Shown in pieces: positions 8,950 through 43,483 of a DNA stretch of 64,000 bases; position 1 is the first letter of the stretch; every line of letters starts with the position of its first letter. The notes under the pieces are model-generated. The model made no database searches, had not been told where the DNA came from, and saw only the letters and a list, made by a program, of their open reading frames with translations. The stretch comes from Spirochaetota bacterium (GTDB lineage: Bacteria; Spirochaetota; UBA4802; UB4802), in NCBI GenBank assembly GCA_026414805.1, contig JAOAIH010000004.1, forward strand, positions 15,808 through 79,807, read 5' to 3'. The translations under genes and the position numbers were made by a program.

Positions 8950-8952
8950 TAC

Positions 8953-10029: not shown

Positions 10030-10040
10030 TGTAAGTAGAG

Positions 10041-10081: not shown

Positions 10082-10102
10082 TAAATACAATAAGGTTGGA
10101 TA

Positions 10103-10831
10103 ATGCGCAGAAGAATTAAAACAAAATCAATTATAATCCCTGAGGCAAAGAAGACCTACTGGAAACGAAGGCCATCAGAAATTAGAGGCTATCAACGGGT
10201 TTTCTACTGCAATACTGAAAACGGTGATTACATCCGTGTGGATTATAATTTAAAAGATAAAAGGGTAAGGCTGTATCTGGAAGATAGCGAAGAAGGCGGA
10301 AATCCTTATTATGCGGTTATAGATAAAGGGCGCATTACTGCTGAACGCAACGCTACTTCAGGGCGACCAGTAAGTTTACGGGAAAAATTTGAAAAGCGTG
10401 CAGAACTCATATCAACCATTCCTAATAAAGATGTAATAAAACTTATCAATAAGCATTATGGAATAGGTGAAAGTGCTGAAGAGATTGCAGCTCGTCAGAA
10501 AAAAAGACAGGAAGAACTTGAAAGAACTCGTAAACGCTACTTCAAACCTGAAGAAGTTCCATCATTTGTTAAAAAAGAAACAATCACAGTATCAAAACGG
10601 AAGGTTAGAATACGTGATATGGTAGATATTGGCATAGGTGGTGTAAGTGTAGGTGGTATATATTTTTTAACTCTTGATTTTGTAAAGGCAGGCATTGCTT
10701 CAGCAGCATTTGGTATACTGCTTGCATTTGTTGATATCTTCATTAGAGAAAAAGAAACACTGTTACTTAAGACGTTGCTGTTTTTGGTTATTGGTATAGC
10801 ATTGTATATTTATGGTTATTTTATTTTATAA
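10103..10831 (+). CDS. Hypothetical membrane protein (basic cytoplasmic N-domain, two C-terminal transmembrane helices)
   Basis: 242-aa ORF with a ribosome-binding site. Hydrophobic C-terminus GIGGVSVGGIYFLTL...LLFLVIGIALYIYGYFIL. No known domain recognised. Confidence 0.5.
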   Translation: MRRRIKTKSIIIPEAKKTYWKRRPSEIRGYQRVFYCNTENGDYIRVDYNLKDKRVRLYLEDSEEGGNPYYAVIDKGRITAERNATSGRPVSLREKFEKRAELISTIPNKDVIKLINKHYGIGESAEEIAARQKKRQEELERTRKRYFKPEEVPSFVKKETITVSKRKVRIRDMVDIGIGGVSVGGIYFLTLDFVKAGIASAAFGILLAFVDIFIREKETLLLKTLLFLVIGIALYIYGYFIL

Positions 10832-20326: not shown

Positions 20327-23300
20327 TTGTATTTTCCAACCAAAACGATTATAGTAATTTTAGGTTATACTGCTTTTCTTATAATGAAGGTTGTATTCAT
20401 GGATAATCGTAAAAAAACACGTAAGCCGTCTAAAAGTGCAAGAAATCTAAAACAAAAGAAGACATTACCACCTACAAAAAAAATTTCACAAAAAGTGGAT
20501 CGTTTTGACCTTGTGGCAAATGAAGAGCTTACCATATTCAAAGAACTGGTAGAAAACTCATCATACGCTATCGGCATGTCCACGCCTCAGGGGAAGCATT
20601 ATTATCAGAATAAAGCATTTAGTGAGCTTTTTGGAGATATTGGGGATGATCCGCCTTCTACGTTGTATGTTGATAAAAAAATTGGAAGAGAAGTATTCAC
20701 AACAATTATGTCCGGAGGCTCATGGACCGGACAGGTAAAAATGTATGATAGAAATAAAAATATAATAGATGTGTACTTACGTGCTAATGCTATTAAAGAT
20801 GCTGCAGGGAAGGTTATAGGTTTAGTAGGCATCCACGAGGATATAACGACTATTAAATTAATGGAGAAAATTTTAAAAGAAAATGAGGAAAAATTTAGAG
20901 CCATCTTTGAATCAACAACTGATGCTGTGTTTATTATGAAAGATGATGTGTGCATTGATTGTAATCCCGCTACTCTGAAGATGTTCAAATGCTCACGCAA
21001 TGATATTATTGGTGCTTCAGCTCACCAGTTTCACCCGCAATTCCAGCCCAATGGGAAAAAATCAAAAGAATTGGCACTACGCTATATTCAAAAAGCAAAA
21101 AAAGGCATTCCCCAACATTTTGAATGGCAACATTTGAAATTGGATGGCACCCCATTCTATACAGAGGTAAGTCTAAATAGACTGGTCTTTGGCAAAGAAG
21201 TATTCTTGCTGGCAATAGTACGCGATATTACTCATCGTAAGGAAATAGAAACCCGATTGAAGAAGAGTGAACAGTGGTACAAGGCGTTATTTGATACTTC
21301 GCCAGACGTAATTATCATTTACGATTTTAAAGGCAATATTTTTGCTGCAAATCATAGAGCACGTGAATTATACGGTGTTGGGACTATCGGTGAATTGTTA
21401 ACTGAAGTCACAAATATACTGGATTTGCTGGATGAAAACGATAAAAAGAAAGCCATAGCCACTATGGAAAATACTCTTAAAACAGGATATGCAGCAGGGA
21501 ATGTTTATACAATTAAAAATAAAAAAGGCCAAAAGATTCAGGTTGAAGTTCATTCTTCAGTTTTGCCAGATAATGAAGGTAATCCTCAGGCGTTTATAAG
21601 TATTATCAGAGATATTTCTGAGCGTATCAAATCAGAAAAAGAGTTAAAGGATAGGGAATCAAAATACAGAGCATTATTTGAAAATGCTACTGAAACCATC
21701 ATGGTGATACAGGATGGCATGATTAAATTGTTCAATAACCGTGCTTCAGAGCTAAGTGGTTATTCACCAGAAGAATTAGCGTCACGCTCATTTATAGATT
21801 TTATACATCCCGAAGACCGTGAGATGGTATTAAATACGTACCTACAGAGAATACAGGGTAAACAGGCTCCAACACAGTATAATTTTAAGATAATTACAAA
21901 AAATCAGGAAATACGGTGGGTTGAAACACATGTTGTTTTGATTGAATGGGAAGGCAAGCCCGCAACATTAAATTTTCTTACTGATATAACAGAACGTAAA
22001 ATTATTGAAGACCAGATAAAAGAAAATGAAGCAAAATACCGTACACTCTTTAATTGTGCAAATGATGCAATCTTTATAATGGATAAAGAAATATTTATTG
22101 ATTGCAATTATAAAACGCTGGAAATGTTTGGATGCACCAGGGAACAGATTATAGGTACGCCTCCATATCAATTTTCCCCAGAATATCAGCCTGATGGAAG
22201 AAAATCAAAAGAAAAAGCACTGGAGAAGATTCATAAAGCTCTTGAAGGGTATCCTCAGTTTTTTGAATGGCAGCATTGCAGATATGACAAAACCCCTTTT
22301 GAAGCTGAAGTAAGCCTTAACGCCTTTGAGCTTGGTGGCAAACAGTATATTCAGGCGATAGTTCGTGATATAACCGAACGTAAAAAAGCAGAAAATATGC
22401 TCCGAAGAAGTGAAGAACAGTACCGAATGCTGGTGGAAACTGCAAAGGAGGGTATTTGGAAAATTGAAAATGATGTTACTACCTATGTAAATAAAGCAAT
22501 GGCTGATATGATGGGGTATACACAAGAAGAGATGATGGGAAAATCTATTTATGATTTTATGTTTGATGAAGATATCCCAGAATTAAAAGAAAGGTTAAAA
22601 AAACGAGCAAAAGGGATTGATGAGGTATACGAAGGCAGACGGAAAAAGAAAGATGGCAGCCCATTGTGGGCGATAGTTTCAGCAAAAGCAATCATAGATG
22701 AAAAAGGTAATTATGTTGGTTCTTTTGCTCTTTATACTGATATAACTGAAAGAAAAAAAGCCGAAGCTGAAATAGTAAACAAACAGAAGCTACTTGAAGA
22801 TATCATTGCATATACTCCTGATCCCACTCTGGTGATTGATAAAAATGGTATCGTTATAGCTTGCAATAAAGCTATGGAAGAGTTGTTGGGGGTAAATGCC
22901 AGTGAATTGATTGGTAAGGGAAATTATGAATATGCATTACCATTGTATGGGGTGCGCAGGCCAATTTTAATAGATTTAGCTTTGCATTATGATGGTGAAA
23001 TAGCAAAAAAATATACATATGTCAAAAAAGAAAAGGATGTACTGATTGCAGAAACTACCATAGATAACTTCAGAGGCAAAAAAGTATATTTATGGGGCAA
23101 GGCTGCACCACTGTATAATAAAGATGGAAATATAATAGGAGCTATCGAAACTATCCGTGACATAACCGAGCAAAAACAAAATGAACTGGCACTCAAGGAG
23201 AGTGAGCAAAAATTTAGAGAAATATTTGACTCAACTACTGATTCAATTATGATTGATGAAATTACTGAAACAGGTGCCAGAATCATTGATTGTAACCAGC

Positions 23301-26300
23301 AAACTTTGGAAATGTATGGATATTCCTCAAAAGAAGAAATGCTTTCGGGCAATATTGGTGATTTAAGTGCAAATATTTATCCATATACAGAAGAGGAAGC
23401 ACAGGAAAAAGTTGCTCTTGCATTAAAAGGCGAAGTTCCTACCTTCGAGTGGTTGGCAAAAAAGAAAAATGGTGAAGTATTCTGGGTAGAAGTAACACTT
23501 AAAAAAGTAACACTTGCAGGCAAGGAAAGAGTATTGGCAATAGTACGTGATATAAATGAAAGAAAAAAAACAGAAGAAAAGCTGACTCTTTATAGTAAAA
23601 GATTAAATACTATTATTGAAGCTGTAAATATTGGTACGTGGGAATGGAATGTGCAGACGGGTGAGCTTGTTTTAAATGAGGTCTGGGCAAATATGGTTGG
23701 GTATACATTACAGGAGCTATCGCCCATATCATTACAAACATGGGAATCATTAACCCACCCTGAGGATTTAAAAAAAGCTTATGATACGCTGGAAAAACAC
23801 TTCAATGGCCAATTGCCGTATTACGAATGCGAAATAAGAATGAAACACAAAAATGGTAATTGGATATGGATTCTTGATAAAGGCAGAGTGGTGATGTGGA
23901 CTAACGATGGCAAACCGCTCATGATGTATGGTACCCATACCGATATTACAAAATTAAAAGAAACTGAACAGGCCTTACGCCAATCAAAAGAGTTTATTAA
24001 TAATGTCCTTGATACTATACCTGTAAGAGTATTCTGGAAAGATAGGCAATTGAGATATTTAGGGTGCAACAGGGCATTTGCTGTTGATGCTGGGTATGAT
24101 GACCCTGCTCAAATTGTTGGAAAGACAGATTTTGATATGGCCTGGAAACAGCAAGCAGAGCTCTACAGGAAAGATGATAAAGATGTAATAGAAACTGGGA
24201 TTGCGAAATTGGGTTATGAGGAACCTCAAAATACGCCTGATGGTAACATATTATGGCTGCGTACCAGCAAAGTACCATTGCGCAATGAAAGTGGTGAAAT
24301 TATAGGCGTGCTTGGAACGTATGAGGATATTACAGAAGCAAAAAAAGCTGAAAAAGATCTTAAAGACAGCGAAGAACGGTACCGTAATTTAGCTGAATCA
24401 ACACAGGATTGTATAGCTTTGCATGATATGAATGGTGTTATTCAATACGTAAATCAGGCTGCAGTAAATATTACTGGATATTCACGTGAAGAGATAATTG
24501 GTAAAAATATAATCATGTTCATTCCACGTAAGTACCGGCGTTCAATTTATGAACGGCACACAAAGCGGCTTAAAGGATTTATGGGTATAGATCAGTTTGA
24601 AGCAGAAATGATTAATAAATATGGAGTTTTAATACCTGTACAGGTGACTTCAACACCTATTGTTAAGGATAATAAGATTGTATCAATAATGATTGTTGTT
24701 CATGACCTTACTCAGCGCAAAATAGCTGAGGAGTTATTGATAAAGAATAAAGAGCGTCTGGAAGCTGCAATATCTATACTGCAATATGATGCACATGATA
24801 CTCGTGAATTAATTGATTATGTGTTGAATCAGGCTTTGCTGTTAACAGGGAGCAAAATTGGTTTTATCATGAGTTATGATAACAAAGAAAAGAAATTCTC
24901 TGTTGAAGCATGGTCAAAAGAAGTCATGTATGAATGTACTATAATAGAGAAGCCAGAAGTGTATTATCTGCATAATGCCGGTATATGGGCTGAAGCGGTC
25001 CGTCAGGCACGGCCAGTTATTATTAATAATTATAAAGAGCCACATACAGCAAAGAAAGGCTATCCAGAAGGCCATGTGGATATTATCCGGTATTTGGGTA
25101 TACCAGTATTTAAAAATAAAGAGATAGTTGCCACTGTTGGTGTTGCCAATAAAGAAACTGATTATACTGAAATAGATGTTTTGCAATTAACATTGCTTAT
25201 GGATGCAGCATGGAAATCAATTGAGCGTTTGGAGATAAAACTGGCTCTTTCTGAAAGTGAAGCAAAATTCAGAACGTTAGCTGATTTAAGCCCAACGGCT
25301 ATTATGATGTATCAGGATGATAAATTTGTATACGTTAATAAGGCTGCTGAGCGCATTTCAGGTTACAGTTTTGAAGAAGCAGTTACTATGGATTTTTGGT
25401 CTATTGTACATCCTGATGATTTGCAGATGATTATTGAAAAAGGAAAGAAACGACAAGCGGGTCAACATGGATTAGATAGTTATGAGTTCAGGATTATTAC
25501 AAGGGGTGGGGAAATTAAATGGGTCTATATCACCAGTGCAACTGTGCAATATAGAGGTAGACCTGCTGGTCTTGTTTCAGTGTTGGATATAACCGACCGT
25601 AAAAAAGCAGAGGACGCCCTGTATGAAGAAAAGGAAAAACTACAGATAACTCTACAAAGTATTGGTGACGGAGTAATAGCAACAGATACTCAAGGTAAAG
25701 TGGTGATTATAAATGCAGCTGCACAGCGGCTTACAGGGTATTCCCAGATAGAAGCGGAAGGGAAACCTCTTACAGAGATCTTTACAATTATTCATGAGCT
25801 ATCGGGCAAACCTTTAGAAAACCCGGTTGAAAAAGTATTAGCAACAGGAAAAGTATATGAGCTTTCTAATCATACAGTCCTGGTGGCAAAAGACGGTACA
25901 CGACGTATTATTGCTGATAGTGCTGCACCTATTAAAGATGCTTCTGGAAATATTCTGGGAGTTGTACTTGTATTTAGAGATATGACCGAAAAACTACAGC
26001 TAATTGAGCAATCGCAACGTGCACAGCGGTTAGAATCATTAGGGATTCTGGCTGCAGGTATTGCCCATGATTTCAACAATATTCTGGAGGGTGTGTTTGG
26101 GTATATTGGACTTGCTAATGCATATGTAAAAGATGCCAATATATCTGATTTGCTATCACAGGCACTTAAGTCAATCCAGCGTGCAAAAGGTTTGACCGGG
26201 CAACTTTTGACATTTTCAAAAGGTGGACAACCGGTTAAAAAAGTGCAGTCAATTATACCTTTATTGGAAGATACAGTACAGTTTGCAATTAGTGGTTCAA

Positions 26301-27121
26301 ATATTAAAGCGCAATTCTATTTTGATGAAAATCTTAATAATGCTAATTTTGACTATAACCAGATTGCACAGGTAATTGAAAATGTAGTTATCAATGCTGT
26401 TCAAGCAATGCCAATGGGAGGTACTATAACTGTAAGTGCAAACAATGTATCATTTAGTGGCAATGAACATCCATTGCTTGAGGGTGATTACATTAGAATA
26501 ACTATTGCTGACGAGGGTGTAGGCATTCCTAAAGACCTACTGCCTAAAATATTTGATCCTTTCTTTACTACAAAAAGTTTGGGACAAGGCTTGGGGCTTG
26601 CAACAAGCTATTCAATTATTACACGGCATAATGGAACAATAGAAGTTGAATCAGAACCAGGAAAAGGAACAACGGTGTATATTTATCTGCCAGCCTCAAA
26701 AAGTAGAGTACAAGATGTACAAAAGAAAGAAGAAAAGAAGATACTGAAAGGAGGAAAAATACTTATTCTTGATGATGAACCTACAATGCGACAGATTATG
26801 CTACAATTTTTAGAACATCTGGGTTTTGAAGGAGTAGCTGTTGACAATGGAAACGATGCAATTGAAATATTTTTAAGGGAAAAAGAAAAAGGAAGGCCAT
26901 TTGATGCATTAATCTTTGATATGACAATAAAGGGAGGTATGGGTGGCAAAGAAGCAATTGCCGAAATACGAAAATATGATTCCAAAGTGCCTGCATTTGT
27001 CATGAGCGGGTATAGTGAAGACTATGTAATGGTACACCCCCAGGAACATGGATTTAACGCTGGTATTAGCAAACCGTTCACACTTGAAGAATTGGAAGCA
27101 TTGCTGGCAAAGTATTTTTAA
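20327..27121 (+). CDS. Giant multi-PAS/GAF hybrid sensor histidine kinase (HisKA + HATPase_c + receiver)
   Basis: 2264 aa. N-terminal hydrophobic segment, more than 12 PAS/PAC repeats separated by recurring ITERKKAE-type linkers, a GAF-like segment, an H-box ([16 protein letters not shown]), N/G1/G2 ATPase boxes, and a C-terminal receiver domain (ILILDDEP...[12 protein letters not shown]). The exact start (20327 or an in-frame Met nearby) is uncertain. Confidence 0.9.
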
Positions 27122-27334: not shown

Positions 27335-27814
27335 TTATAAAGTGGCAAAACTCTGAAAAACTCTATTAAAAAAAGATTCAAAGCTGTAAAAGGTATTTTC
27401 AGGTGCGCTGCATTCAATGATAAAGATAGTAGCACCTGTGTTGATAATACGTATCCGGTGAATAGAACTAACTTTATTTCTATATGTTGCAACTAGAATA
27501 CCACCGTTATCGTTTCGTGATTGTAGTACAAAGTGAGCATTTGGGTCAATATCCCATATCTTCCATGTCAATTCAGCAAGAATATCAGATTGTATTGATT
27601 TCAATTTGAAAACTTTAATGTAGATGTCTTTTGAGTAAGCACAGATAAATTCATGAATATCACTTTGCATCATTTCAGATATATCCCATGCGGGCACTTC
27701 AACCTGAAACCCCAAAGCGCTTTTGTACATAGTAAAACAATTTGGCGATGAGTTGGATATATTTGGCATGACTACTGTTAACAGTGTAACAATGACAATT
27801 AAAAAATTTTTCAT
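27335..27814 (-). CDS. Hypothetical secreted protein
   Basis: 159 aa. Signal peptide MKNFLIVIVTLLTVVMPNISNS. No recognisable domain. Confidence 0.5.
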   Translation of the reverse strand: MKNFLIVIVTLLTVVMPNISNSSPNCFTMYKSALGFQVEVPAWDISEMMQSDIHEFICAYSKDIYIKVFKLKSIQSDILAELTWKIWDIDPNAHFVLQSRNDNGGILVATYRNKVSSIHRIRIINTGATIFIIECSAPENTFYSFESFFNRVFQSFATL

Positions 27815-31743: not shown

Positions 31744-33372
31744 TTATTCTAGATCTCCTATCTTTTTCAAAATGGTTGCTTCATAAGGGTAGCATTGCAT
31801 TCGTAAATCAGCAAAGTGTTCAAATTTGCTTCGATGAGTTGAATACAGTACTTTCCACTGTGCTTCGTGGTGGTGGTGTAAAAAGGTGTTGGTGTCATTA
31901 AAATTTAATATGATGCATAAAGTTTCATTGTCAAATTTACGGATATATGCTAAAATGCCATTCTTACCCTTAACGATAGGTTCCCAGGTTCCATGAGTAA
32001 GTGCTGGATGTTTTTTTCGCAGTTGTATTATATCCTTAAAGAATGAGAGCAGTGAATAGCGGTCTTTAATTTGATTTTTGACATTAATTGTGCGATAGTT
32101 ACTGTCAATTGGCAACCAGCTGCAACCGTTGCTGAAACCAGCATTTGCCTCATCGGACCATTGCATTGGAGTACGGGCACAGTCCCTACCTTTATACAGC
32201 GGCCAAAAGCGTTTGCCTGCAGGATCAACAATGTTGCGCAGGGGAATGGCACAATTTTTCATTCCTATCTCTTCGCCGTAATATATGAATGGTGTTCCCC
32301 ATAATGTTAAAAGCAAGAGTGCCAAAAGACGTTTAATTGCATCATTACTGTCATTGCTGTATTTGTCGGCATATCGTGGTTGGTCATGATTTGATAAAAC
32401 GTTACATGGCCAACAGTTTTCAGGAATAGCGTTGTACCAATGTTTAATGCATGTATATATTTTTCGTGCATCAAATGGCTGATACAAAAGTGAAAAGTCA
32501 AATGCAAGATTCAATCCTTTACCATTAAAGAGATAACTGGCAGAAAGTTCAGGATTACCGGGAGGATAACAAAATACTTCACCAACAACCATACGGTCAT
32601 CATAGGAATCAATCAGTTCGCGAATTTCCTGAACAAGTATATAGTTTTCCGGCCTGTTGCGATTATATTTTTCTATTTGCTCATTGAATGGATTAAATGA
32701 AAATGGATTGTTACGGAAACGTTTGTCTTTATAGCAATAGTTAATCACATCAAGCCTGAATCCATCTACTCCCATATCAAGCCAGTACCTCATCACATCA
32801 AACATTGCCTGTTTCACTTGTGGGTTTCGCCAGTTTAGATCGGGTTGCTCTTTGAGAAATGAATGAAGATAGTACTGCCCGGTAGGTTGGTGCCATTCCC
32901 AGGCTGATGTTAAATACGCTGATTTCCAGTTGTTGGGCGGTTTTCCTTTTTTGCCATCATGCCATATATACCAGTCGCGCTTTGGATTGTCTTTTGATGA
33001 AGATGATTCTATAAACCACGGATGCAGGTGAGACGTGTGGTTTAACACCATGTCCATTATGATCTTGATGTTGCTACTATGAGCTATCGCCAGTAAATTT
33101 TTGAAATCATCCATTGTGCCAAATGAAGGATCAATGGCATAGTAATCGCTGATATCATATCCACAATCATACATTGGAGAAGTGTATATAGGCGACAGCC
33201 ATATAGCATCAATTCCCAGACTAGTAAGGTAATCAAATTTTTCGATAATGCCCTGGATATCGCCTATGCCATCGCCATTTGAATCATAGAAGCTGCGGGG
33301 ATAGATCTGGTATATTATCCCATGCTTCCACCATACATGTTGTTTTACATTATGCCGCTGTGTTGAGATCAT
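31744..33372 (-). CDS. GH13 alpha-amylase-family enzyme (oligo-1,6-glucosidase / alpha-glucosidase / trehalose-synthase-like)
   Basis: N-terminus WWKHGIIYQIYPRSF, GIDAIWLSPIY, QPDLNWRNPQV, catalytic GVDGFRLDVINY, VGEVF, SNHDQPR. Start placed at the internal Met (MISTQRH, 33372). The track ORF extends to 33417 and would overlap the upstream gene. Confidence 0.85.
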   Translation of the reverse strand: MISTQRHNVKQHVWWKHGIIYQIYPRSFYDSNGDGIGDIQGIIEKFDYLTSLGIDAIWLSPIYTSPMYDCGYDISDYYAIDPSFGTMDDFKNLLAIAHSSNIKIIMDMVLNHTSHLHPWFIESSSSKDNPKRDWYIWHDGKKGKPPNNWKSAYLTSAWEWHQPTGQYYLHSFLKEQPDLNWRNPQVKQAMFDVMRYWLDMGVDGFRLDVINYCYKDKRFRNNPFSFNPFNEQIEKYNRNRPENYILVQEIRELIDSYDDRMVVGEVFCYPPGNPELSASYLFNGKGLNLAFDFSLLYQPFDARKIYTCIKHWYNAIPENCWPCNVLSNHDQPRYADKYSNDSNDAIKRLLALLLLTLWGTPFIYYGEEIGMKNCAIPLRNIVDPAGKRFWPLYKGRDCARTPMQWSDEANAGFSNGCSWLPIDSNYRTINVKNQIKDRYSLLSFFKDIIQLRKKHPALTHGTWEPIVKGKNGILAYIRKFDNETLCIILNFNDTNTFLHHHHEAQWKVLYSTHRSKFEHFADLRMQCYPYEATILKKIGDLE

Positions 33373-36004
33373 TGATGAACTGCTTGATGATTGCATCAGG
33401 GCTGTATTCATGAGCACGCAATAATGACTGGTTTTTGAATAGATTGAGCAGAAGAGGGTTATCCAGAAGCTCTATTATTTTTTGACCCATTTCGGTTTCA
33501 TTTTTTACTAGATAACCATTTAAGCCATTGTTTATAATGTCTTTTGGTCCCTTTGTGTTATATGCAAGTACGGGCAACCCGCATGATAGCGCTTCTAGTA
33601 CAACACATCCAAACGTATCAAATCGTGAAGGTAATACCAGCATGTCAGCAGCCGAGTATATCTTTGGCAATTTTTCATGGTCAACCCAACCTAAAAAGAT
33701 TGCATCTGGCATAAGTTTTTTGAGTTCCTGTTCTTTTGGCCCAATACCTGCAAATGCAACCTTTGCATGAGGATGTTTTTGCTTAACAATCTCCATTACT
33801 TTTGGTATATCCATAACGCCTTTTTCTTCAGAAAGCCTACCAGCAAAAAGTATTACAGGTGTTGTGGCACTCACACCAAATATTTCTTCTTTACTTGTTT
33901 TGTAAGGTTTAAAAATTTCTTCAACCCAGTGTGCAGTCAAAAATACCTGTGAGGGATTAAATCCCATATCTTTTCCGGTTAGCCATTTGCGGTGATCATT
34001 GTTAAGGACAAATAATCCATCAAAACCTTTGTAAAAAGTACGAAGTAATCTTCGGAAATTATTGAGATTTTCGCCTGTTAATTTTAGTGTTTGTTCTGCA
34101 AACATCATCCAGTCTGTGTGTACATAAAAATACGCAGGCACTGAATATGCATATTTTAACCAAACTGCAGCCAACCCCATTGGCCCTTCAGTTGAGGCAA
34201 TAATCTTGCTGTATTCACCTTCTTTAAATATTTTGTGAATTTCCAAAATATCAGGAATTCGTAATGGTTGCTGTTCATAAAATGGAAGCGTAAATTCCTT
34301 CAAAGGCTGTATAACGATTAAGTGATCCTGTGGTTGAAGTGTGTTGCTGATAGTTAATATATCTATAGGTAGATCCCGTTTTTGGATTTCTTTGAGCATT
34401 GATTGTAGTACCATTGCCACACCGTTTGAGTCGGTAAATGTATCGGTGAGCCACAACGTACGTTCAGGGTGTTTGAGAGTGTTATGAACTTTTGCAAATT
34501 CGTACAGCAATGGACGAGCTTTATACATTACACGTGCGCTAGTAAAAAAGGCTGCTGCAATCACTGCTGATCCTAAAAATGGGAATGATAATTCATCAAA
34601 TAATTTTGGCAGATTGACTTTTGATAAACCATTGCCATTAGATTTTTCGTTGGGTTCAATGTATTTTCTAAAATGTGTAGGGATTTCTATGTCTTCAAAG
34701 AATGATTCAAATTCTTTTGATTTAAACCGTTCATCTTTAATAAAATCATTGATATGCTTATCAGCACGTTTCATGAGTAGTTGTAGTAATTCTTTATATA
34801 TTCCGTATATAGATTCTGTAAAGAATTCTATATCTTCTTTTTTTCTTGTTTTTGTGTAACGGGATAATTTATATGCTATATCAAAGACCTTTTTATAATC
34901 TCTGCTTACATAAAACCGTTTTGTTTTAGAAAATGTTTTTCCAATCAAGGACTGATGGAAGAGTTCAAGGAAGTTAAGTGTAGTTTTATGCCGTCGTAAT
35001 TCAAGAAAAGCGTTAGTTATGGCTAAAGCAGCTAATTTATCTTGCATATCTCCTTTATGCAGTAATATATGAGGAAGGCCAGGATCTTCCATGTTCATAG
35101 CTATCTGACAGAAGTAATCAATAAATGATATTGCCATCTTTTCGCTATCATTATGAGAACCAAAAGGTGCCATCGCACCTTGCTTAATTGCTTCAAGTGC
35201 CAGCATTGAACGGCTAACAGTTTTTAATCGTTCATTAAGATTTGGAATGTGCAAATAGACACCTGTGAGGCCTGTAAATATTCCCATGTGACTATCGGAC
35301 CCTCCAGACATAAACTTGTCATAAGGTCTTTTACAAAACCTATCAGGTTTTATTTTAAATTTTTGCGAAAGCTCATCTAATTTATCTTTGGTTAATGACT
35401 CGATCCATTGTTTCACCAGCATATTTTGCCAGCTATCGCGTTGACCATTGATGACTTCAAATCGTTCAAACAGAAGAGCCATTTTATCGAAGAATTCCAT
35501 AGGTGGAATTCCTTTTGATTTGTAGTGATAGAGTGGATGAGCCCATATTGTGGGGAGGTCCTGCTCTAGTGTGTAATCTAAAAATTTATATATATCATTG
35601 CGGTATTTATTAAGCTTGATTTCCTGTTGGGGCGTAAACCCATACGTAAGAACATGGATACCAACTTTGTAATCGGGAACGGTACAACTAAACTCAGCAC
35701 CAACGAGCACGTCTACTCCTTTTTCTAAAAGCTGGTAGCATGAGCGTGCATTGTTGTGATTTGTTATAGTAAATGTGTCACAACCGTGAATTTTTAATGT
35801 GGAAATGAGTTCCTGTGTTGGCAACCATGTTTCGGGTATTCCTAATATTCTACCTAATTGCTCATCGGGTACATTGCTGTTGTAGTCATGGCAATGCAGG
35901 TCTATGGTTAATATTTCATTGGCAGGGTAGCGATTTTTTTGTTCATTGACAAAAGAATTAAGCAGTGAAGTAATCTGTTGGCTAAATGTTGCTTTTGACG
36001 TCAT
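33350..36004 (-). CDS. Fusion protein: N-terminal PHP-domain phosphoesterase plus C-terminal GT4 (GT-B) glycosyltransferase
   Basis: 884 aa. PHP motifs IDLHCHDYNSN...HNNARSC...GAEFS in residues 1-250. Central region (~250-500) of unknown function. C-terminal GT4 signature GRLSEEKGV...VLPSRFDTFGCVVLEALSCGLPVLAYNTKGPKDII. Lies immediately upstream of the GH13 gene on the same strand. Confidence 0.75.
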   Translation of the reverse strand: MTSKATFSQQITSLLNSFVNEQKNRYPANEILTIDLHCHDYNSNVPDEQLGRILGIPETWLPTQELISTLKIHGCDTFTITNHNNARSCYQLLEKGVDVLVGAEFSCTVPDYKVGIHVLTYGFTPQQEIKLNKYRNDIYKFLDYTLEQDLPTIWAHPLYHYKSKGIPPMEFFDKMALLFERFEVINGQRDSWQNMLVKQWIESLTKDKLDELSQKFKIKPDRFCKRPYDKFMSGGSDSHMGIFTGLTGVYLHIPNLNERLKTVSRSMLALEAIKQGAMAPFGSHNDSEKMAISFIDYFCQIAMNMEDPGLPHILLHKGDMQDKLAALAITNAFLELRRHKTTLNFLELFHQSLIGKTFSKTKRFYVSRDYKKVFDIAYKLSRYTKTRKKEDIEFFTESIYGIYKELLQLLMKRADKHINDFIKDERFKSKEFESFFEDIEIPTHFRKYIEPNEKSNGNGLSKVNLPKLFDELSFPFLGSAVIAAAFFTSARVMYKARPLLYEFAKVHNTLKHPERTLWLTDTFTDSNGVAMVLQSMLKEIQKRDLPIDILTISNTLQPQDHLIVIQPLKEFTLPFYEQQPLRIPDILEIHKIFKEGEYSKIIASTEGPMGLAAVWLKYAYSVPAYFYVHTDWMMFAEQTLKLTGENLNNFRRLLRTFYKGFDGLFVLNNDHRKWLTGKDMGFNPSQVFLTAHWVEEIFKPYKTSKEEIFGVSATTPVILFAGRLSEEKGVMDIPKVMEIVKQKHPHAKVAFAGIGPKEQELKKLMPDAIFLGWVDHEKLPKIYSAADMLVLPSRFDTFGCVVLEALSCGLPVLAYNTKGPKDIINNGLNGYLVKNETEMGQKIIELLDNPLLLNLFKNQSLLRAHEYSPDAIIKQFINDLNTAA

Positions 36005-36157: not shown

Positions 36158-36649
36158 ATGGCGGGGTACATAATGAATGCTGAAACCACAACGTGTATTT
36201 CAATTCAAAATTATGGAATACTTAAGGAGCTTTGCAGAAAATATAAAATATCTTATTCAAGAGCAGTAGTGTTGATGGTTAAATATGCTACCGAAAATAA
36301 AAAATTATCAATAATAAGTAACAGAAACGTTAAATATAGAGATAAGAATGTTGCAGTATGGAGAAGGATTCATATACAGCTAACTCCTAATGAATATGAA
36401 TTTTTGATGGATGTTAAGAAGATCTGGAAGATGTCTGTGGCGAAGATGATTGAGTTTTGTCTTGAAACTATTCTTCTTGAATTAGTGGAAAATGTTCTAG
36501 AAAAAAATAGAACCGATAACTATCTATATAATAACTATCATTTTGAAATTGGTGAGGTAGAAGGTATTACATATTACCAGATCTACTGGGGGTTACCCAC
36601 AAAAATCCTCACACAAATACTAAAAAAACCATCATATACCCTCACATAA
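36158..36649 (+). CDS. Hypothetical protein with two tandem ribbon-helix-helix-like units
   Basis: 163 aa. Two similar segments (ISIQNYGILKELCRKYKISYSRAVVLMVKYA and IHIQLTPNEYEFLMDVKKIWKMSVAKMIEFCLE) each show the strand-helix-helix pattern of RHH/CopG-like proteins. Confidence 0.45.
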   Translation: MAGYIMNAETTTCISIQNYGILKELCRKYKISYSRAVVLMVKYATENKKLSIISNRNVKYRDKNVAVWRRIHIQLTPNEYEFLMDVKKIWKMSVAKMIEFCLETILLELVENVLEKNRTDNYLYNNYHFEIGEVEGITYYQIYWGLPTKILTQILKKPSYTLT

Positions 36650-37341: not shown

Positions 37342-37806
37342 ATGAAAACGCAAACAAAAGATACCGCATTAAATAGCATGCAGATCGTATGCTTTAATAT
37401 AGGCAAGGAAGAATATGGAATAGAAATATTGAAGGTGCAGGAAATACTAAAGCTTCCCGCAGTAACACCCTTGCCAAAATCTGCTGATTATATTATGGGA
37501 GTCATTGATTTGCGCGGCAAGGTTATCCCCATTGTTGATTTAGGGGTGCGCTTTGGAATTTCTGAAAAAAGCACAAAAAACAAACGTGCAATCGTTGTTG
37601 ATATTAAAGGCAAGCGTATAGGGCTTGCAATAGATCAAGTAAGTCATGTCATTAAACTGGAGCAAAAAGACATTGAACCACCGCCACCAATTGTAAAAGG
37701 CATATCAGGCAGGTTTATCATTGGAATAGGGAAAGTTGAAAATAAATTTGTGATTATTCTTGATATAGACCAAATATTTTCTTCAGAAGAATTAAAGCAG
37801 CTATAA
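37342..37806 (+). CDS. cheW: Chemotaxis coupling protein CheW
   Basis: 154 aa. CheW domain (IVCFNIGKEEYGIEILKVQEIL...VIDLRGKVIPIVDL). Confidence 0.9.
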   Translation: MKTQTKDTALNSMQIVCFNIGKEEYGIEILKVQEILKLPAVTPLPKSADYIMGVIDLRGKVIPIVDLGVRFGISEKSTKNKRAIVVDIKGKRIGLAIDQVSHVIKLEQKDIEPPPPIVKGISGRFIIGIGKVENKFVIILDIDQIFSSEELKQL

Positions 37807-38964
37807 TTTTTTCTGTTTATAGTATTCCTTTAGCGCTTCTTCCATTATAAGGTATAAAGGTTTTTTGATTTTTGCTGCCACCTTTTTACAATCCTCATAT
37901 TCAGGTTTAGGCGATAGCTCATTATAACGATAACTTTGCTTAATACGGATTTGTTCACCGTAAAGGGTAATCGTTGCAATATCCCGTGGTAAAAAGTGGC
38001 GACTAACAGTATATTCCCTGACTCCCAATGTTGTCGTTTGAGAAAAAATAATCTGTGTGCACTGTTTTACAGCTGAAAAAGGGCAAAGTACTGAAAGTAC
38101 CACACCAGGTCGCCCTTTTTTCATGATAACCTGTTGCATATATACATCTAACGCTCCCTCGCTAAAAAGCAGATCATATACATACGGATAAATTTCAGGA
38201 TTCATATCATCAATGGTGCATTCCAGCACGCACAAAAGTTGGTGTTGACTATCTGTATCATCTAGAAGCATAACCCGCGTATAACTTGGGAAACCATAAT
38301 CGCGTGTACCAAACCCTATGCCAGTTGCAGAAATCATACCTCCAAACTGTAGTTGCTGTTTACCTAAGGTTGTAAGTATAGCAGCAGCAGTTGGTGTTGT
38401 CAGTTCACCTACTTTTCCGGTGAATATAACCTGTTTCCCTTCTGTCAGCTTGACAGTTGCAGGGGCAGGTAATGGGATTGTTCCGTGTTGTGTGGATATA
38501 GTACCGGTGCCACATGCAAATGCGCTGTAGTACAATACATCGATTTGTAGGTATTCAATGCCAATACAAAAAGAAAGTATATCTACAATACTATCAATGG
38601 CACCCACCTCATGAAAATGTACTTTCTCCTTTGGTATGCCATGCACTGCAGCCTCAGCTGTGGCTAATGCATCAAATATTTTAATTGCATTGTTTTTAAC
38701 AAAGTCAGAACATGTTGTTGATGAAATAATTGCATCAATTGCTTCAAGGTTTCTATGTGTTGTATCAACTTTAGCTTTAATTCCAGCTTGAATGCCGCTA
38801 ATTCCATGCCGCACAATTTTTTCAGGAGCTATCTCAAAACCTTTAATGGGTAATGATTGTAATTGTGTAGTAATAACTTCAACCGGTAGCCCAACATCAA
38901 TGAGTGCGCCCACAAGCATATCACCGGATGCTCCCAGTTGAATATCGCAATAAAGTATTTTCAT
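37801..38964 (-). CDS. larC: LarC-family protein (DUF111; nickel insertase of the nickel-pincer nucleotide cofactor pathway)
   Basis: 387 aa. N-terminus MKILYCDIQLGASGDMLVGALIDVG matches the LarC/UPF0272 family. Confidence 0.75.
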   Translation of the reverse strand: MKILYCDIQLGASGDMLVGALIDVGLPVEVITTQLQSLPIKGFEIAPEKIVRHGISGIQAGIKAKVDTTHRNLEAIDAIISSTTCSDFVKNNAIKIFDALATAEAAVHGIPKEKVHFHEVGAIDSIVDILSFCIGIEYLQIDVLYYSAFACGTGTISTQHGTIPLPAPATVKLTEGKQVIFTGKVGELTTPTAAAILTTLGKQQLQFGGMISATGIGFGTRDYGFPSYTRVMLLDDTDSQHQLLCVLECTIDDMNPEIYPYVYDLLFSEGALDVYMQQVIMKKGRPGVVLSVLCPFSAVKQCTQIIFSQTTTLGVREYTVSRHFLPRDIATITLYGEQIRIKQSYRYNELSPKPEYEDCKKVAAKIKKPLYLIMEEALKEYYKQKKL

Positions 38965-38973
38965 GATACTATC

Positions 38974-39723
38974 CTACAAATTCCGTATAATACGGTATGC
39001 ACAGTACACAGCACCAAATCCATTATCTATATTGACCACACTTACCCCTGGTGCACAGGAGTTGAGCATACCTAAAAGTGCTGCAATACCACCAAATGAT
39101 GCACCATACCCAACTGAAGTGGGCACAGCAATGACGGGGCAGGGCACCAGCCCGCCAATAACGCTAGGCAGTGCGCCTTCCATTCCGGCAATAACAATTA
39201 TAACAGTTGCATCATGAATATGTTCCCAGTTATGGAAAACTCTATGAATACCTGCAACCCCAATATCATAAATAGTTTCAACATTAAGCCCCATTATACG
39301 TGCGGTTTCTTTTGCTTCTTCAGCTACGGGAATATCTGATGTTCCTGCTGTGATGATTAAAAGCTTGTGAGGTTTATGGTGGGGTTTTTGTATGCAGTAT
39401 GAAATGACTCTACCTGCTTCATTGTAGTGTGCTTTTTTAATATATCGTTTTACAGCAGTAAAATGTTCTTTTGTTGCCCGTGTACCCAGAAAATTTGTCT
39501 TACGTTTAACCATAGACTGTGCAATATCGGCTACCTGTTTTGGAGTTTTATTCTGGCAAAAAATAACTTCAGGGAAGCCAAGCCTGGTTTGCCGGTGATG
39601 GTCAAGTGTGGTGTGGCCTAATTGTTCAATTGTAAGGTGCGATAGCTCCTGTAGAAAATCTTCTTCAGAAATGAGCCCATTTTTAAAGCGATGCAGTAAA
39701 TCTTTAATTGCAGAGTGGCTCAT
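38974..39723 (-). CDS. larB: LarB-like PurE-fold carboxylase/hydrolase (nickel-pincer cofactor biosynthesis)
   Basis: 249 aa. PurE-like core IITAGTSDIPVAEEAKETARIMGLNVETIYDIGVAGIHR and a C-terminal NCAPGVSVVNIDNGFGA. Confidence 0.75.
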   Translation of the reverse strand: MSHSAIKDLLHRFKNGLISEEDFLQELSHLTIEQLGHTTLDHHRQTRLGFPEVIFCQNKTPKQVADIAQSMVKRKTNFLGTRATKEHFTAVKRYIKKAHYNEAGRVISYCIQKPHHKPHKLLIITAGTSDIPVAEEAKETARIMGLNVETIYDIGVAGIHRVFHNWEHIHDATVIIVIAGMEGALPSVIGGLVPCPVIAVPTSVGYGASFGGIAALLGMLNSCAPGVSVVNIDNGFGAVYCAYRIIRNL

Positions 39724-39726
39724 AGG

Positions 39727-40953
39727 TTAATATGCAGCAATAAGGATAGTTTCAACTTCATCACGGTTAAGCACCCGCGGTGCATTTTGAATAAATGGGT
39801 AGGAAAGTGTAATTTCAGCTACCTTAGAGAAAATAGCCTTATTTATATCAAATTGCGACAGTCGCTGTGGGATGTCAACATCAAGAGCCAGTTTTCTTAC
39901 ACCTTCCACAGCTTTAATTGCAGCTTCAATGACAGTAATATCCCGTACATCTTCGTCCATGACTTTTGACATCTGAACATATTTAGCAGGTGTTGATGTT
40001 AAATTGTATTCCATGATATGCGGTAACATAACAGCCATATAAGAAGCTATATCAATATGTGTCAACGAAGAAAGTGCCAGTGACAATGCAAGGGATACAG
40101 AAAGTTGAGCACTACTGAATGCAATTCCGGCCATTAGTGAAGCCATCATCATATTGAGGCGGGCGGTTTCATTATCACTTTCGCGAAGTGCTGCGGGTAA
40201 ATTTTTGAAAATCAAGTCTATGGTTCTCAATGAAAGGGTGTTCGTGATATTATTAATGTTTTTGGAAATAACAGATTCTATTGCTATGGCCAGCGTTGCT
40301 ATGCTATACCTTGCTATTGTTTCTTCATCAATACCAAAGGACATCCCCGGGTCAAGGATGACTGCTTTTGGAAAAATATAATTGTGAAAAAATGTTTTAT
40401 GTATGCCGTCATGGATATCGGTTAGTATTGTACAGGGAGTTATGTCAAATCCAAAGAGAGGGTGGACAGGGATACTTATAAATGGGACAGATTCATGAAG
40501 ATACGGGTAAGTGAAAAGTTCATGTGCAAAAAAATAATTGGATGTCAAAAGGGCAACTGCTTTTGCTGCATTAATTGAATGGATACCACCAAAACCTATA
40601 ACAAGATCACAATGGGTTTTTCGGGCAAAATAGACCGCAGTATCAATATAATCAGTGTTGTTTTCAGGAATTTCATCATAAATTATAAAAGGAATATTGT
40701 TGTTTTGCAGGTTTCTGGCAATGGGCATAAAAAGATGGTTGTACTGGTTAAAATCTATGGAACTGGTAATAAAAAGTACCCGTGAGCCAAAAAGCTTTAT
40801 AATTGAGGGAAGCAGCGTCACACTGTCAGGCTGTGCATATACAGCTGTTGGAATATAGAGGTCAGGCCATATACCTTCAATGGTTTGCCCATACGTTTTA
40901 GACATAAAAAAGCGGAATCCTGATTCCGCCTTTCTGTCAATTATGCCGGCCAT
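39727..40953 (-). CDS. Iron-containing alcohol dehydrogenase (Fe-ADH / DHQS-like superfamily) family protein
   Basis: 408 aa. N-terminal RVLFITS...IIYDEIPENNTDYIDTAVYFARKTHCDLVIGFGGIHSINAAKAVA (GGGS-like loop), AVILDPGM, and the histidine pair ...LTHID...LPHI. Its stop lies 4 nt before the larB start. Confidence 0.65.
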   Translation of the reverse strand: MAGIIDRKAESGFRFFMSKTYGQTIEGIWPDLYIPTAVYAQPDSVTLLPSIIKLFGSRVLFITSSIDFNQYNHLFMPIARNLQNNNIPFIIYDEIPENNTDYIDTAVYFARKTHCDLVIGFGGIHSINAAKAVALLTSNYFFAHELFTYPYLHESVPFISIPVHPLFGFDITPCTILTDIHDGIHKTFFHNYIFPKAVILDPGMSFGIDEETIARYSIATLAIAIESVISKNINNITNTLSLRTIDLIFKNLPAALRESDNETARLNMMMASLMAGIAFSSAQLSVSLALSLALSSLTHIDIASYMAVMLPHIMEYNLTSTPAKYVQMSKVMDEDVRDITVIEAAIKAVEGVRKLALDVDIPQRLSQFDINKAIFSKVAEITLSYPFIQNAPRVLNRDEVETILIAAY

Positions 40954-40977
40954 TAATATAACCTTTAATGGATGTTT

Positions 40978-41280
40978 CTATTTTCGTAAAAGCTGCATTG
41001 CAATTTTTTCGGCAACTTTATCTATAATGCGGTCATCATTGAAATCATAAGTACCATTGGCAATCTGTTCTTTAAGTTCTCGTACTCGTTCAGCTCTAAT
41101 ATCGGGTGTTTGTTTGACAACCTGGGCAATTTTTGACTGTTCGGCAGCTTTCTTTGCTTCGCTGGAAATTTCAACCGAGTCAGATTTACCAGTAGATTTT
41201 GCTTTCCCTACTGATTTAGTATTTTTAGGTTCAACAATATTTTTAATATTACCTATTTTATCTATAACCATTGCAATCAC
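40978..41280 (-). CDS. flgM: Anti-sigma-28 factor FlgM
   Basis: 100 aa. C-terminal FlgM signature IRAERVRELKEQIANGTYDFNDDRIIDKVAEKI. Confidence 0.8.
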   Translation of the reverse strand: MIAMVIDKIGNIKNIVEPKNTKSVGKAKSTGKSDSVEISSEAKKAAEQSKIAQVVKQTPDIRAERVRELKEQIANGTYDFNDDRIIDKVAEKIAMQLLRK

Positions 41281-41534
41281 CCTCTTTTAATCTATAGTAA
41301 CTATCGGCACCTATTTGTCAAATCTTAATTTATTATTTAGTAATTGTTGTAAATATAATCAATAATTAAATCTAATTAATAGTATAGTGTAATGTAGGTA
41401 AATTGCAATACAATTTTAAAAAAATCTATGAAAATTTGATTGCTTGAATTACCACTAACTATCGCCATTTATAATTACTCCACTTTTTTTATATTGAAAG
41501 ATTTAAGATTTTTTTACTTTGCTCAGAATGACAT

Positions 41535-42743
41535 TTAAAGGCTTTTATTGTCACTACATAAATTTTCAAATTCCTTTAAAAAGTTTATATAATGTGTGAA
41601 TCGAACGTTGTGGATTGTAATATCCTCTTTCCCCTGGTATAGTACAGTACCTTGTATGTGAGTGTGAGGGTTATAGTTTTTGAATTGTTGTATTAGTTTT
41701 GCAATCTTTTCTGCAAAAAGCGGTTTAGGTGTGGAAGTTAATTTTATTTCCAGTAAATATATGGTTTTATTACGTAGATCTTCAATTATACAATCAATTT
41801 CGTTTCCAGTATTGTCTCTAAGGTAAAATATTTTAATATGCGCATTATGGTGTAATATTATTTTATTCAATTCAGCTATGATGTAATTTTCAAAAATTGT
41901 ACCTGCTAATGGTCCTTTTTGCAATAGTTCAAGTGTATATATACCAGTTAAATAGCACACAACACCAGTGTCATAAAAATATACTTTTGGCCGTTTTACA
42001 ATTCGTTTGCCTATGTTGTTATAATATGGCAAGACAGTAAATAGTACATAACTTGCTTCAAGTACTGATATCCAGGATTTAATGGTTTTCACTGTAACAC
42101 CAATGTCATTGGCTAAACGGTTCATATTCAGTTCCTGCGCAGTTTGGGAAGCAAGAAGTGATAGAAGTCGTTGAAAATCTTTTAGATTGCCAATATTAAA
42201 AAGTGACCTTACATCACGTTCTAAATAATTAGTAATATATGCAGCGTACCATTCATGTACACCGTGATATTTTCGCACTACATTTTCAGGGTAGCTTCCA
42301 TATATAATCTGATGTTTTTGTAATAGATGAGGTATTTCAGAATATTGAAAAGGCAGCAAAGTCAAAAGTCCTATTCTTCCAGCTAATGATTCTGTTATAT
42401 TTTTCAGCATGGTAAACTGACTTGATCCAGTCAGTATAAAATTGCCATATTCAAAACGATTATCATCTATGCACAATTTAATATAATTAAAAATATCAGG
42501 TACTTTTTGCACCTCGTCAAAAATTATGTGATTGTTAAATTCCTTAAAAAAACCTTTAGGATCAACCAAGAAGCGTTCACGAATAATTGGATCGTCAAAT
42601 GTAACATAACGATAAGTATGTGAATATTGTTGTTTCAACATAGTAGATTTTCCAGACTGCCGTGGTCCACATACAGCAACTGCAGGGAAAATTGATAAAT
42701 ACTGGGATAATGTTTTTTCTAATGTTCTGTGGTAATATTTCAT
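41535..42743 (-). CDS. AAA-family ATPase with a DUF4143 C-terminal domain
   Basis: 402 aa. Walker A GPRQSGKST. The architecture is typical of the widespread AAA_14/DUF4143 family. Confidence 0.7.
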   Translation of the reverse strand: MKYYHRTLEKTLSQYLSIFPAVAVCGPRQSGKSTMLKQQYSHTYRYVTFDDPIIRERFLVDPKGFFKEFNNHIIFDEVQKVPDIFNYIKLCIDDNRFEYGNFILTGSSQFTMLKNITESLAGRIGLLTLLPFQYSEIPHLLQKHQIIYGSYPENVVRKYHGVHEWYAAYITNYLERDVRSLFNIGNLKDFQRLLSLLASQTAQELNMNRLANDIGVTVKTIKSWISVLEASYVLFTVLPYYNNIGKRIVKRPKVYFYDTGVVCYLTGIYTLELLQKGPLAGTIFENYIIAELNKIILHHNAHIKIFYLRDNTGNEIDCIIEDLRNKTIYLLEIKLTSTPKPLFAEKIAKLIQQFKNYNPHTHIQGTVLYQGKEDITIHNVRFTHYINFLKEFENLCSDNKSL

Positions 42744-42802: not shown

Positions 42803-43483
42803 CTATTTCTCTGAGTTATAAAAAGCTACAACAAATTCTCCCTTTTGGGTAAGTTGTGTTGCTACCGCATCGACATCACCTGCTTCACAGTAAATAAATT
42901 GTTCAAAATGTTTTGTCATTTCTCTTCCAATGAAAATTTTAGATTTTGGCATTACTTCAGCAATTGCGTGCAACAATTTAACAATTCTATACGGGGATTC
43001 ATATACTACAATTATTGCATTCATGTGCGATAGCTCCTGCAACTGTTTTTTGCGCTTGCCTTCTTTCTTGCTTAAAAATCCAGCAAAATAAAATTCGGTT
43101 GATGGAAATCCACACACTGAAAGAATACAAGTTACTGCTGAGGGACCCGGTATAGGAATGACAGGAATATCGTTTTCTCTTGCCAGTGCTGCCAATTTGC
43201 CACCTGGATCTGATATGCCAGGGGTGCCTGAGTCAGTACAATATGCAACTGTTTTGCCAGATTGTATTTCCTGAATGATGCTGTGCAGTTTTGTATTGCT
43301 TGAATGGGTATGGAGTGAACGCAGTGGTACATTTATCCCATAATGGGTAAGAAGCTTTGCTGTCTGACGTGTGTCTTCACAATACACAATATCAGTTTCT
43401 TTCTTGAGAATACGCAGTGCACGCAATGTAATATCTTCAAGATTGCCAATAGGAGTTGCAATAATATATAGTTTTCCAGGCAT
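42803..43483 (-). CDS. rsmI: 16S rRNA (cytidine1402-2'-O)-methyltransferase RsmI
   Basis: 226 aa. N-terminus [34 protein letters not shown] is diagnostic of RsmI. Confidence 0.85.
   Translation of the reverse strand: [226 protein letters not shown]

Follow-up and report, generated by a model that had tools for sequence, protein, structure and literature searches.

An iron-alcohol-dehydrogenase-fold protein with an erased metal site in the flgM unit of Leptospirales-type Spirochaetota, and its neighbouring larB-larC pair

The 64 kb stretch of DNA analysed here, hereafter the window, belongs to a Spirochaetota bacterium (contig JAOAIH010000004.1, assembly GCA_026414805.1) and covers about 1-2 % of one genome. 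On its minus strand, at 37801-41280, it carries flgM, a gene of the iron-containing alcohol dehydrogenase (Fe-ADH) superfamily, larB and larC in this transcription order, with intergenic gaps of 24, 3 and 9 bp. The second gene, part of a flagellar-regulon unit, encodes a superfamily member whose metal site has been erased, referred to as the Fe-ADH-like protein; the lar pair behind it is presumably under sigma-28 control. The explanation preferred here, with a probability of about 0.5, is that the Fe-ADH-like protein belongs to the sigma-28/flgM unit and has a role independent of the cofactor NPN (nickel-pincer nucleotide), and that larBC is a lineage-specific addition serving a dispersed lar pathway. 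The evidence comes from the anatomy of the locus, the residue losses in the protein, the promoter, the terminator and the phyletic pattern.

The four open reading frames (ORFs) had been placed at these minus-strand positions by an earlier reading of the letters alone (the sequence-only reading). All of them are present, and their family assignments are borne out by Pfam and NCBIfam. The same reading regarded the genes as one operon and proposed the Fe-ADH-like protein as a candidate for a new nickel-pincer-dependent enzyme.

Fold, metal site and nucleotide motifs of the Fe-ADH-like protein

Pfam assigns Fe-ADH domains only, both past their cutoffs (PF00465, 91.9 bits; PF25137, 113 bits), and no homology to LarA (PF09861) was detected. 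The best NCBIfam match is lactaldehyde reductase, with 157 bits against a cutoff of 523, and all 14 matches are far under their cutoffs. The AlphaFold2 (AF2) model has a pLDDT of 91.5, with residues 1-24 disordered, and Foldseek aligns it to FucO, ADH2 and DhaT with TM scores of 0.87-0.89 and an rmsd of about 1.9 A at 20-24 % identity. The two-domain fold, D93, the DP motif, H312 and the C-terminal helical architecture are common to the protein and the group III Fe-ADHs (FucO, DhaT and Z. mobilis ADH2). Unlike these, it has no metal ligands and neither the GGGSxxD nor the TTxGTGSE motif, it stays under every equivalog cutoff, and its gene is placed in a sigma-28 flgM unit.

The losses were located by aligning the protein residue by residue with DhaT (3bfj), a methanol dehydrogenase (8zrl) and BdhE (9ldl). 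The DhaT metal ligands D198, H202, H267 and H281 align with A219, I223, L288 and I302, and the second-sphere histidine of Fe-ADHs is replaced by L292. The NAD motif GGGSxxD reads GGIHSIN in the window protein (family pattern GG[ILVT][DEHN]SxN), and the TTxGTGSE loop reads HPLFGFDI (family pattern PxxPxFGFE). Family conservation was assessed with alignments of 35 and 109 homologues as well as 75 proteins derived from the compared loci. The replacements at the metal ligands and in the NAD motif are family-wide, including the Leptospira-like outgroup, and none of the 75 locus-derived members has an Asp or His at any of the four metal-ligand columns. Instead, the Asp is replaced by A/S and the three His by I/L/M, L and V/I, respectively.

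Near-invariant new motifs are found in the family (GFGGxxSxNxAKA, PxxPxFGFExxP and LSxxLAxSLALSS), and the block from LPHIMEYNLT through GVRKL is unusually conserved. H312 is invariant, but it corresponds to the LPH histidine that Fe-ADHs have in general; K131 is almost invariant. By its sequence, the protein is no iron alcohol dehydrogenase, as the catalytic apparatus is gone while the fold is kept. The residues replacing the active-site motifs are strongly conserved, so that a re-purposed protein binding a ligand or a partner is more likely than a gene in decay. A precedent is ErcA of Pseudomonas (NF041833), which has the Fe-ADH fold and a regulatory annotation. Its model ranks second among the NCBIfam matches (E=2e-45, 156 bits against a cutoff of 550), and the window protein is not a member, the likeness being one of possible role only.

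Some features of Fe-ADHs are still present, namely D93 (the adenosine-ribose Asp at the end of beta-2), the DP motif and the LPH motif. They would fit an alternative in which the protein has no relation to FlgM or Lar and is a conventional dehydrogenase, NAD(P)-dependent or catalytic in some other way, whose active site is unusual, and in which larB-larC was inserted at a permissive site between the convergent Fe-ADH-like and cheW genes to serve LarA-type racemases or epimerases encoded elsewhere. The insertion point lies in an intergenic region between convergent genes, bare larB-larC pairs are also seen elsewhere, and LarA homologues are common in Spirochaetota (PMC11770544). This coincidental neighbourhood is nevertheless improbable. 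Bulky or acidic residues have remodelled both GGGS and TTxGTGSE, the protein reaches about 150 bits or less against every characterised subfamily, for cutoffs of more than 500, and the gene has no promoter space of its own, being locked behind the flgM terminator in most genomes. Furthermore, the D-H-H-H metal site is lost, and we know of no Fe-ADH family member that functions without it.

Transcription signals and start codons

A sigma-28 (FliA/WhiG)-type promoter lies upstream of flgM in the window (Table 1) and is overlapped by a sigma-70-like TTGACA-N16-TACTAT. The sigma-28 element, with the consensus TTAAAGAATTGACAAA-N6-CCGATA followed by AAGGG-N8-ATG, precedes flgM in 75 of 79 sequences, Leptospira-like loci included. 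With strict matching it was observed in 45 of 82, compared to about 3.7 expected from background. FlgM is recognised as such by its FlgM domain, the presence of a sigma-28 gene in the window and the conserved TAAA-N15-GCCGATA promoter, and the sigma-28 gene at 172-972 encodes the cognate factor for this promoter and the target of FlgM. The TAAA-N15-GCCGATAA promoter spacing upstream of flgM and the anti-sigma-28 domain are common to class-3 (sigma-28-dependent) flgM units elsewhere. The unit described here differs from them in its conserved downstream partner, a degenerate Fe-ADH-fold gene behind a conserved terminator. The mechanically called flgM ORF begins at a GTG at 41280. Because the conserved AAGGG-N8-ATG layout of Shine-Dalgarno (SD) sequence and start codon fits at the ATG at 41271, this is most likely the true start, which gives a protein of 97 amino acids (aa); flgM homologues have 97-99 aa.

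A GCGG...CCGC hairpin with a tract of six to eight T was found between flgM and the Fe-ADH-like coding region in 71/71 sequences, with a dG of at most -6 kcal/mol in 64 of them. From the end of the T-tract to the codon of the conserved Pro35, the median distance is 52 nt, and in many loci it is only 40-47 nt. In the window, the annotated Fe-ADH-like ORF holds the terminator in its first 48 nt (40906-40953). Since hairpin and T-tract fall in what is annotated as coding, and the model shows residues 1-24 as disordered, the coding sequence (CDS) probably starts at the ATG at 40905 (M17) and encodes 392 aa. The database homologues P0001 and P0002 (408 aa) likewise start upstream of the flgM terminator, so that the hairpin is annotated as coding.

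A second sigma-28 promoter, or another promoter between flgM and the hairpin, was considered and rejected, with matches in 6 of 79 loci even under lax criteria. Because the terminator precedes the Fe-ADH-like gene, usually without room for a promoter, and no second promoter is conserved, we infer that this gene, and larBC where present, is probably expressed by terminator read-through under sigma-28 control. No minus-strand terminator was found in the window between the Fe-ADH-like gene, larB and larC. The single operon from flgM to larC that had been proposed meets no such terminator among its last three genes, whereas at the flgM/Fe-ADH-like junction it would require read-through of a terminator present in every sequence compared.

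Further observations concern the terminator itself. Its stem (AAAGCGGA...TCCGCTTTTTTTAT) is conserved nearly base for base in L001-L077 (for example L001:9894-9925), while the loops vary. This conservation spans proteins that are just about 50 % identical, exceeds what a generic terminator needs, and the stem holds a GGA motif. The terminator may be a regulated attenuator or a protein-binding site. The only SD-like sequence for the M17 start, AGGA, sits within the hairpin, which hints that terminator folding could be coupled to translation initiation of the Fe-ADH-like gene. No Rfam match at the gathering threshold, either to a riboswitch or to a known leader RNA, was found anywhere in the window. 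A fusion of FlgM to the Fe-ADH-like protein by stop-codon read-through was rejected, since the common frame seen in the window is not kept in L008 and other loci and was judged coincidental.

Conservation among spirochaete relatives

With a single genome taken per species, a scan yielded at least 556 relatives, all from Spirochaetota, Leptospirales or Leptospiraceae metagenome-assembled genomes (MAGs). For 80 species-level loci, the surrounding sequence of up to 10 kb on either side was compared by searching six-frame ORFs with the window proteins. The most conserved neighbour is flgM, which lies directly upstream of the Fe-ADH-like gene in 76 of the 78 loci holding upstream sequence; the two true exceptions, L078 and L080, have no upstream flgM even by FlgM profile. 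Further upstream, rsmI precedes flgM in most loci, and a convergent cheW lies downstream in most loci that are not Leptospira-like.

Among the 75 informative loci, the Fe-ADH-like gene is followed by larB and larC in 25, by larB alone in three and by neither in 47. In loci without larBC, cheW directly adjoins the Fe-ADH-like gene, and both layouts were confirmed by gene calls with Pfam labels. Two of the three loci with larB alone end at a contig edge. The third, L053, truly has larB followed by cheW without larC (L053:4328-5646), and represents either a snapshot of lar gene loss or a use of larB without larC. The recurrence in 25 of the 80 species-level genomes argues that the adjacency of the Fe-ADH-like gene and larBC is not due to chance. 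In a neighbour-joining tree, the larBC-linked Fe-ADH-like proteins fall into two adjoining clades, with apparent larBC losses in L026 and L049. The coupling to flgM, which the sequence-only reading had considered odd, is therefore the rule in this family. It is the co-occurrence with larBC, suggested as a check and followed here by locus adjacency, that is restricted to 25-28 of the 75 loci, is absent in 47 and shows secondary losses.

Proteins with and without adjacent larBC have their conserved residues in common. In the alignment of the 75 locus-derived proteins, no Lys, His or Cys is specific to the larBC-linked members. The columns separating linked from unlinked members (K250R, Y316F, D333G and G351A) all hold conservative changes, and the linked state equals the state of the Leptospira-like outgroup. 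K372 does not vary in the linked and outgroup sets, but 17 of 39 unlinked members have Q or R there, and the three groups have no invariant Lys in common.

larB, larC and the remaining lar genes

The window LarC, a fusion of LarC1 and LarC2, scores 180 bits with TIGR00299 (cutoff 90) and 140 bits with NF052512 (cutoff 50). It keeps D15, H53, R71, E104, H108, H116, H118, E119, D124, D128, H160 and E187, with the same numbering as in Moorella LarC, where substitution of these 12 residues impaired the enzyme (PMC13510736). LarB and LarC of the window thus look functional. The window LarC is 100 % identical to P0121 from an NCBI Spirochaetes MAG, and its nearest homologues (43-79 % identity) are apparently on the same contigs as the Fe-ADH-like matches. 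In this lineage, larBC appears to live only beside the Fe-ADH-like gene and to be inherited together with it.

As the sequence-only reading had stated, the window contains neither larA nor larE. Among its ORFs of at least 120 aa judged likely genes (about 47 of the 54 listed, the others being antisense or overlapping), a Pfam scan found no LarA (PF09861) and no LarE (PP-loop, TIGR00268), and phmmer with a verified LarE seed (TIGR00268, 312 bits) gave no match in the window or within 10 kb in any of 86 loci. As a ground for a new enzyme, however, this absence carries little weight, because it rests on the 1-2 % of the genome covered by the window. A wider search with the LarE seed from L087 was uninformative on this lineage, as its best 120 matches are all from other phyla and none is on a contig with an Fe-ADH-like gene. 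The canonical lar cluster of Lactiplantibacillus plantarum (larA-larB-larC-larE) likewise has adjacent and co-oriented larB and larC, both of which are bona fide here. The window differs from it in having no larA or larE within 64 kb and in placing the genes after flgM and its terminator, under presumed sigma-28 control.

Four LarC contexts outside the lineage were examined, namely larE-larC-thiS (L087), larB-larC (L088), larC-larE-larB (L089) and larB-larC (L090). None of them has an Fe-ADH-like neighbour, and the association of the Fe-ADH-like gene with larBC therefore seems to go back to about one evolutionary event. The bare larB-larC pairs of the unrelated lineages L088 and L090 have no larE or larA nearby. 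Because such pairs occur in other lineages too, homologues of larE and LarA are probably located elsewhere in the genome of the window organism. Published surveys report that Spirochaetota carrying LarA homologues have an average of at least two per genome (PMC11770544), and that about 15 % of genomes have larB, larE and larC but no larA, which implies users of the cofactor other than LarA (PMC11796402).

Two of the outside contexts deserve separate mention. L089, with larC-larE-larB beside DUF362/Fer4 genes, was considered as a relative with a full cluster and rejected, its shared proteins being 30-47 % identical to the spirochaete ones. In L087 (L087:9159-13389), from an unrelated organism, larE-larC is followed by a gene for a ThiS-like sulfur carrier and one for an aldehyde:ferredoxin oxidoreductase. 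With a ThiS-like gene beside larE, the sulfur for pincer biosynthesis could come from a non-sacrificial source.

A nickel-pincer enzyme or a protein of the FlgM unit

The intact lar genes suggest another possibility, in which the Fe-ADH-fold protein would be a new scaffold for NPN/NPMN, or for the dinucleotide NPAD, in the former NAD/Fe site, with the cofactor bringing its own metal. In that case, larB-larC would be co-expressed to supply the cofactor, larE would be located elsewhere, and genomes with unlinked larBC would carry their lar genes at other sites. There is a precedent for such a conversion. The aldo-keto reductase (AKR)-fold protein NphT binds the nickel-pincer cofactor covalently and was identified through its adjacency to lar genes, in a search that demanded larE no more than 20 ORFs away; many lar neighbours in that study are annotated as NAD(P)H oxidoreductases, and an NPAD-dependent ornithine cyclodeaminase is cited there (PMC13524815, 2026). 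NAD(P)-fold enzymes have thus become pincer users elsewhere, and the published pipeline would have missed the present cluster. Like NphT, the Fe-ADH-like protein comes from an NAD(P)-oxidoreductase superfamily, has altered residues in its cofactor site and is encoded beside lar biosynthesis genes. Unlike NphT, it has another fold, no lar-specific His/Lys motif and no larE nearby, and is linked to lar genes in only about one third of its family. A link between Fe-ADH proteins and the pincer cofactor was not reported in the literature searched.

The nickel-pincer proposal draws further on the tight, translationally coupled Fe-ADH-like/larB/larC array in 25-28 species-level genomes, on LarB and LarC that look fully functional, and on the replacement of all metal ligands and of the pyrophosphate-binding GGGS turn by conserved new residues. 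The invariant H312 and the nearly invariant K131 would be available, and the retained D93 would also allow NPAD. However, the protein is equally conserved in the 47 of 75 informative loci without adjacent larBC. It has no Lys invariant in all three groups and none specific to the larBC-linked members, and no larE was found within 10 kb in the 86 loci or within the window. Furthermore, L053 kept larB and lost larC, and none of the four other lineages examined shows the association independently. A pincer user is therefore possible but doubtful. What stands of the original proposal is the lack of metal ligands, the degenerate NAD motif, the functional-looking larBC in a sizeable clade and the precedent for fold conversion, whereas the unlinked majority, the lack of a larBC-specific residue and the single evolutionary event count against it.

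The preferred explanation, a role within the FlgM unit that is independent of the pincer cofactor, accounts for the pattern as follows. The flagellar-regulon flgM transcription unit is conserved across Leptospirales-type Spirochaetota, with a sigma-28 promoter driving flgM. Behind the strong conserved intrinsic terminator, the Fe-ADH-fold gene would be expressed mainly via read-through, and its metal-less product would have been re-purposed for the binding of a ligand or a partner. Functional larB and larC would have been appended at the 3' end of the unit in one sub-lineage, which includes the window, would be translationally coupled, and would have been lost later in some members. The pair would feed a dispersed lar pathway whose larE and LarA-type users are presumably encoded elsewhere in the genome. 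The core function of the Fe-ADH-like protein would then be tied to the FlgM/sigma-28 regulon and would not require the nickel-pincer cofactor.

Several points weigh against this explanation. The adjacency of the Fe-ADH-like gene and larBC is tight, with 3 and 9 bp in the window and overlaps in L004 and L086, and it is kept even between distant relatives, whose Fe-ADH-like proteins are as little as about 52 % identical and whose LarC proteins about 43 %. Seen from larBC, the Fe-ADH-like gene is a constant partner within the lineage. Judging by the analogy of AKR NphT, a protein going over from NAD+Fe to a mononucleotide cofactor that brings its own metal would also be expected to lose the catalytic metal and the ADP-binding glycine turn. 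Strong purifying selection on the former active-site motifs speaks for a genuine ligand pocket. Finally, the tie of the Fe-ADH-like protein to FlgM is suggested by gene adjacency, and this adjacency is weak evidence because the whole region of about 20 kb is syntenic.

Features of the locus and other observations in the window

The features of the locus are listed in Table 1. The stop codon of larC overlaps that of the convergent cheW by 6 bp.

Table 1. Positions in the window, strand and supporting evidence of the genes and signals at and around the flgM unit
Feature	Position	Strand	Evidence
flgM, anti-sigma-28 factor	ORF 40978-41280, likely CDS 40978-41271	-	PF04316 E=1.6e-14; TIGR03824 50.8 bits (cutoff 40.75)
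Fe-ADH-like gene	ORF 39727-40953 (408 aa), probable CDS 39727-40905 (392 aa)	-	PF00465 E=4.6e-26; PF25137 E=1.7e-32
larB, NaAD carboxylase/hydrolase	38974-39723, 3 bp past the Fe-ADH-like stop	-	NF033503 303 bits (cutoff 175); PF00731
larC, CTP-dependent nickel cyclometallase, fused LarC1+LarC2	37801-38964, 9 bp past larB	-	PF01969 E=1e-124
cheW, convergent; 3' boundary of the flgM/Fe-ADH-like/larBC unit	37342-37806	+	PF01584 E=2e-40
rsmI, 16S rRNA C1402 2'-O-methyltransferase	42803-43483	-	TIGR00096 214 bits (cutoff 168)
AAA_14/DUF4143 ATPase between rsmI and flgM	41535-42743	-	PF13173, PF13635
sigma-28 (WhiG/FliA) gene	172-972	+	NF004935 433 bits (cutoff 343); TIGR02479 294 bits
sigma-28 (FliA/WhiG)-type promoter of flgM, TAAG-N15-GCCGATAG	41301-41327, -10 element 41308-41301	-	sequence reading
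intrinsic terminator of flgM, GCGGAAT-CAGG-ATTCCGC stem-loop 40929-40912 and T6 40911-40906	40906-40929	-	sequence and palindrome detection

The AAA_14/DUF4143 ATPase gene is intact at its position between rsmI and flgM only in the window and in L007, with fragments in L009. Standing outside the conserved unit, it looks like a mobile or selfish gene that was inserted recently and has begun to decay. In the relatives L001, L002, L004 and L086, cheW is followed by two unknown genes and then by hfq, miaA, gmk, remA, yicC, cheD, cheR and fapA within about 10 kb. In the window, a block that includes whiG/fliA, fapA, cheR, cheD, yicC, gmk and miaA lies at 172-10831 on the opposite strand, with about 26 kb of other genes before cheW. 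By this comparison of gene order, the region is rearranged in the window, with the flgM/Fe-ADH-like/larBC/cheW core intact.

Other genes of the window were noted as well. A hybrid sensor kinase of 2264 aa (20327-27121) carries about 12 PAS domains along with one GAF domain and HisKA/HATPase, and has a receiver domain at its C-terminal end. A protein of 884 aa (33350-36004) has a GT4 glycosyltransferase in its C-terminal half and an N-terminal half of about 500 aa without a Pfam match, and its gene shares 68 bp with the start of the alpha-amylase-family gene downstream of it (31744-33417). No Pfam or NCBIfam match was obtained for four ORFs of 159-280 aa (36158-36649, 3361-4203, 10103-10831 and 27335-27814). 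Relatives carry family-less proteins of 155-300 aa at the corresponding positions adjacent to cheW and fapA, which match the window ORFs in position.

Significance

It is unlikely, though worth stating, that the whole metal-less Fe-ADH-fold family is a nickel-pincer scaffold for NPN or NPAD within the sigma-28 flagellar regulon, with the pincer nickel replacing Fe/Zn and, in one lineage, the genes for making the cofactor expressed in the same regulon. If this were true, nickel-pincer chemistry would be linked to the control of motility in spirochaetes, and another fold would have been converted from NAD(P) to NPN, after LarA, AKR NphT and ornithine cyclodeaminase. It would also be a user of the cofactor that the published lar-adjacency pipeline missed because larE was required nearby.

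The biology of FlgM remains essentially uncharacterised in Leptospira (PMC12655853, PMC4863578). In the literature searched, including that on the neighbours of flgM in Leptospira, neither a link of flgM to an ADH-like gene nor such an arrangement behind a terminator was found. The analysis corrects the annotated gene start, since a terminator is presently annotated as coding sequence, and it shows that the name 'iron-containing alcohol dehydrogenase' is a misnomer for this metal-less family. In hundreds of Leptospirales-type genomes, the sigma-28/FlgM unit of spirochaetes has a so far undescribed part, a strongly conserved Fe-ADH-fold protein whose catalytic metal site is erased and whose gene lies behind a conserved flgM terminator.

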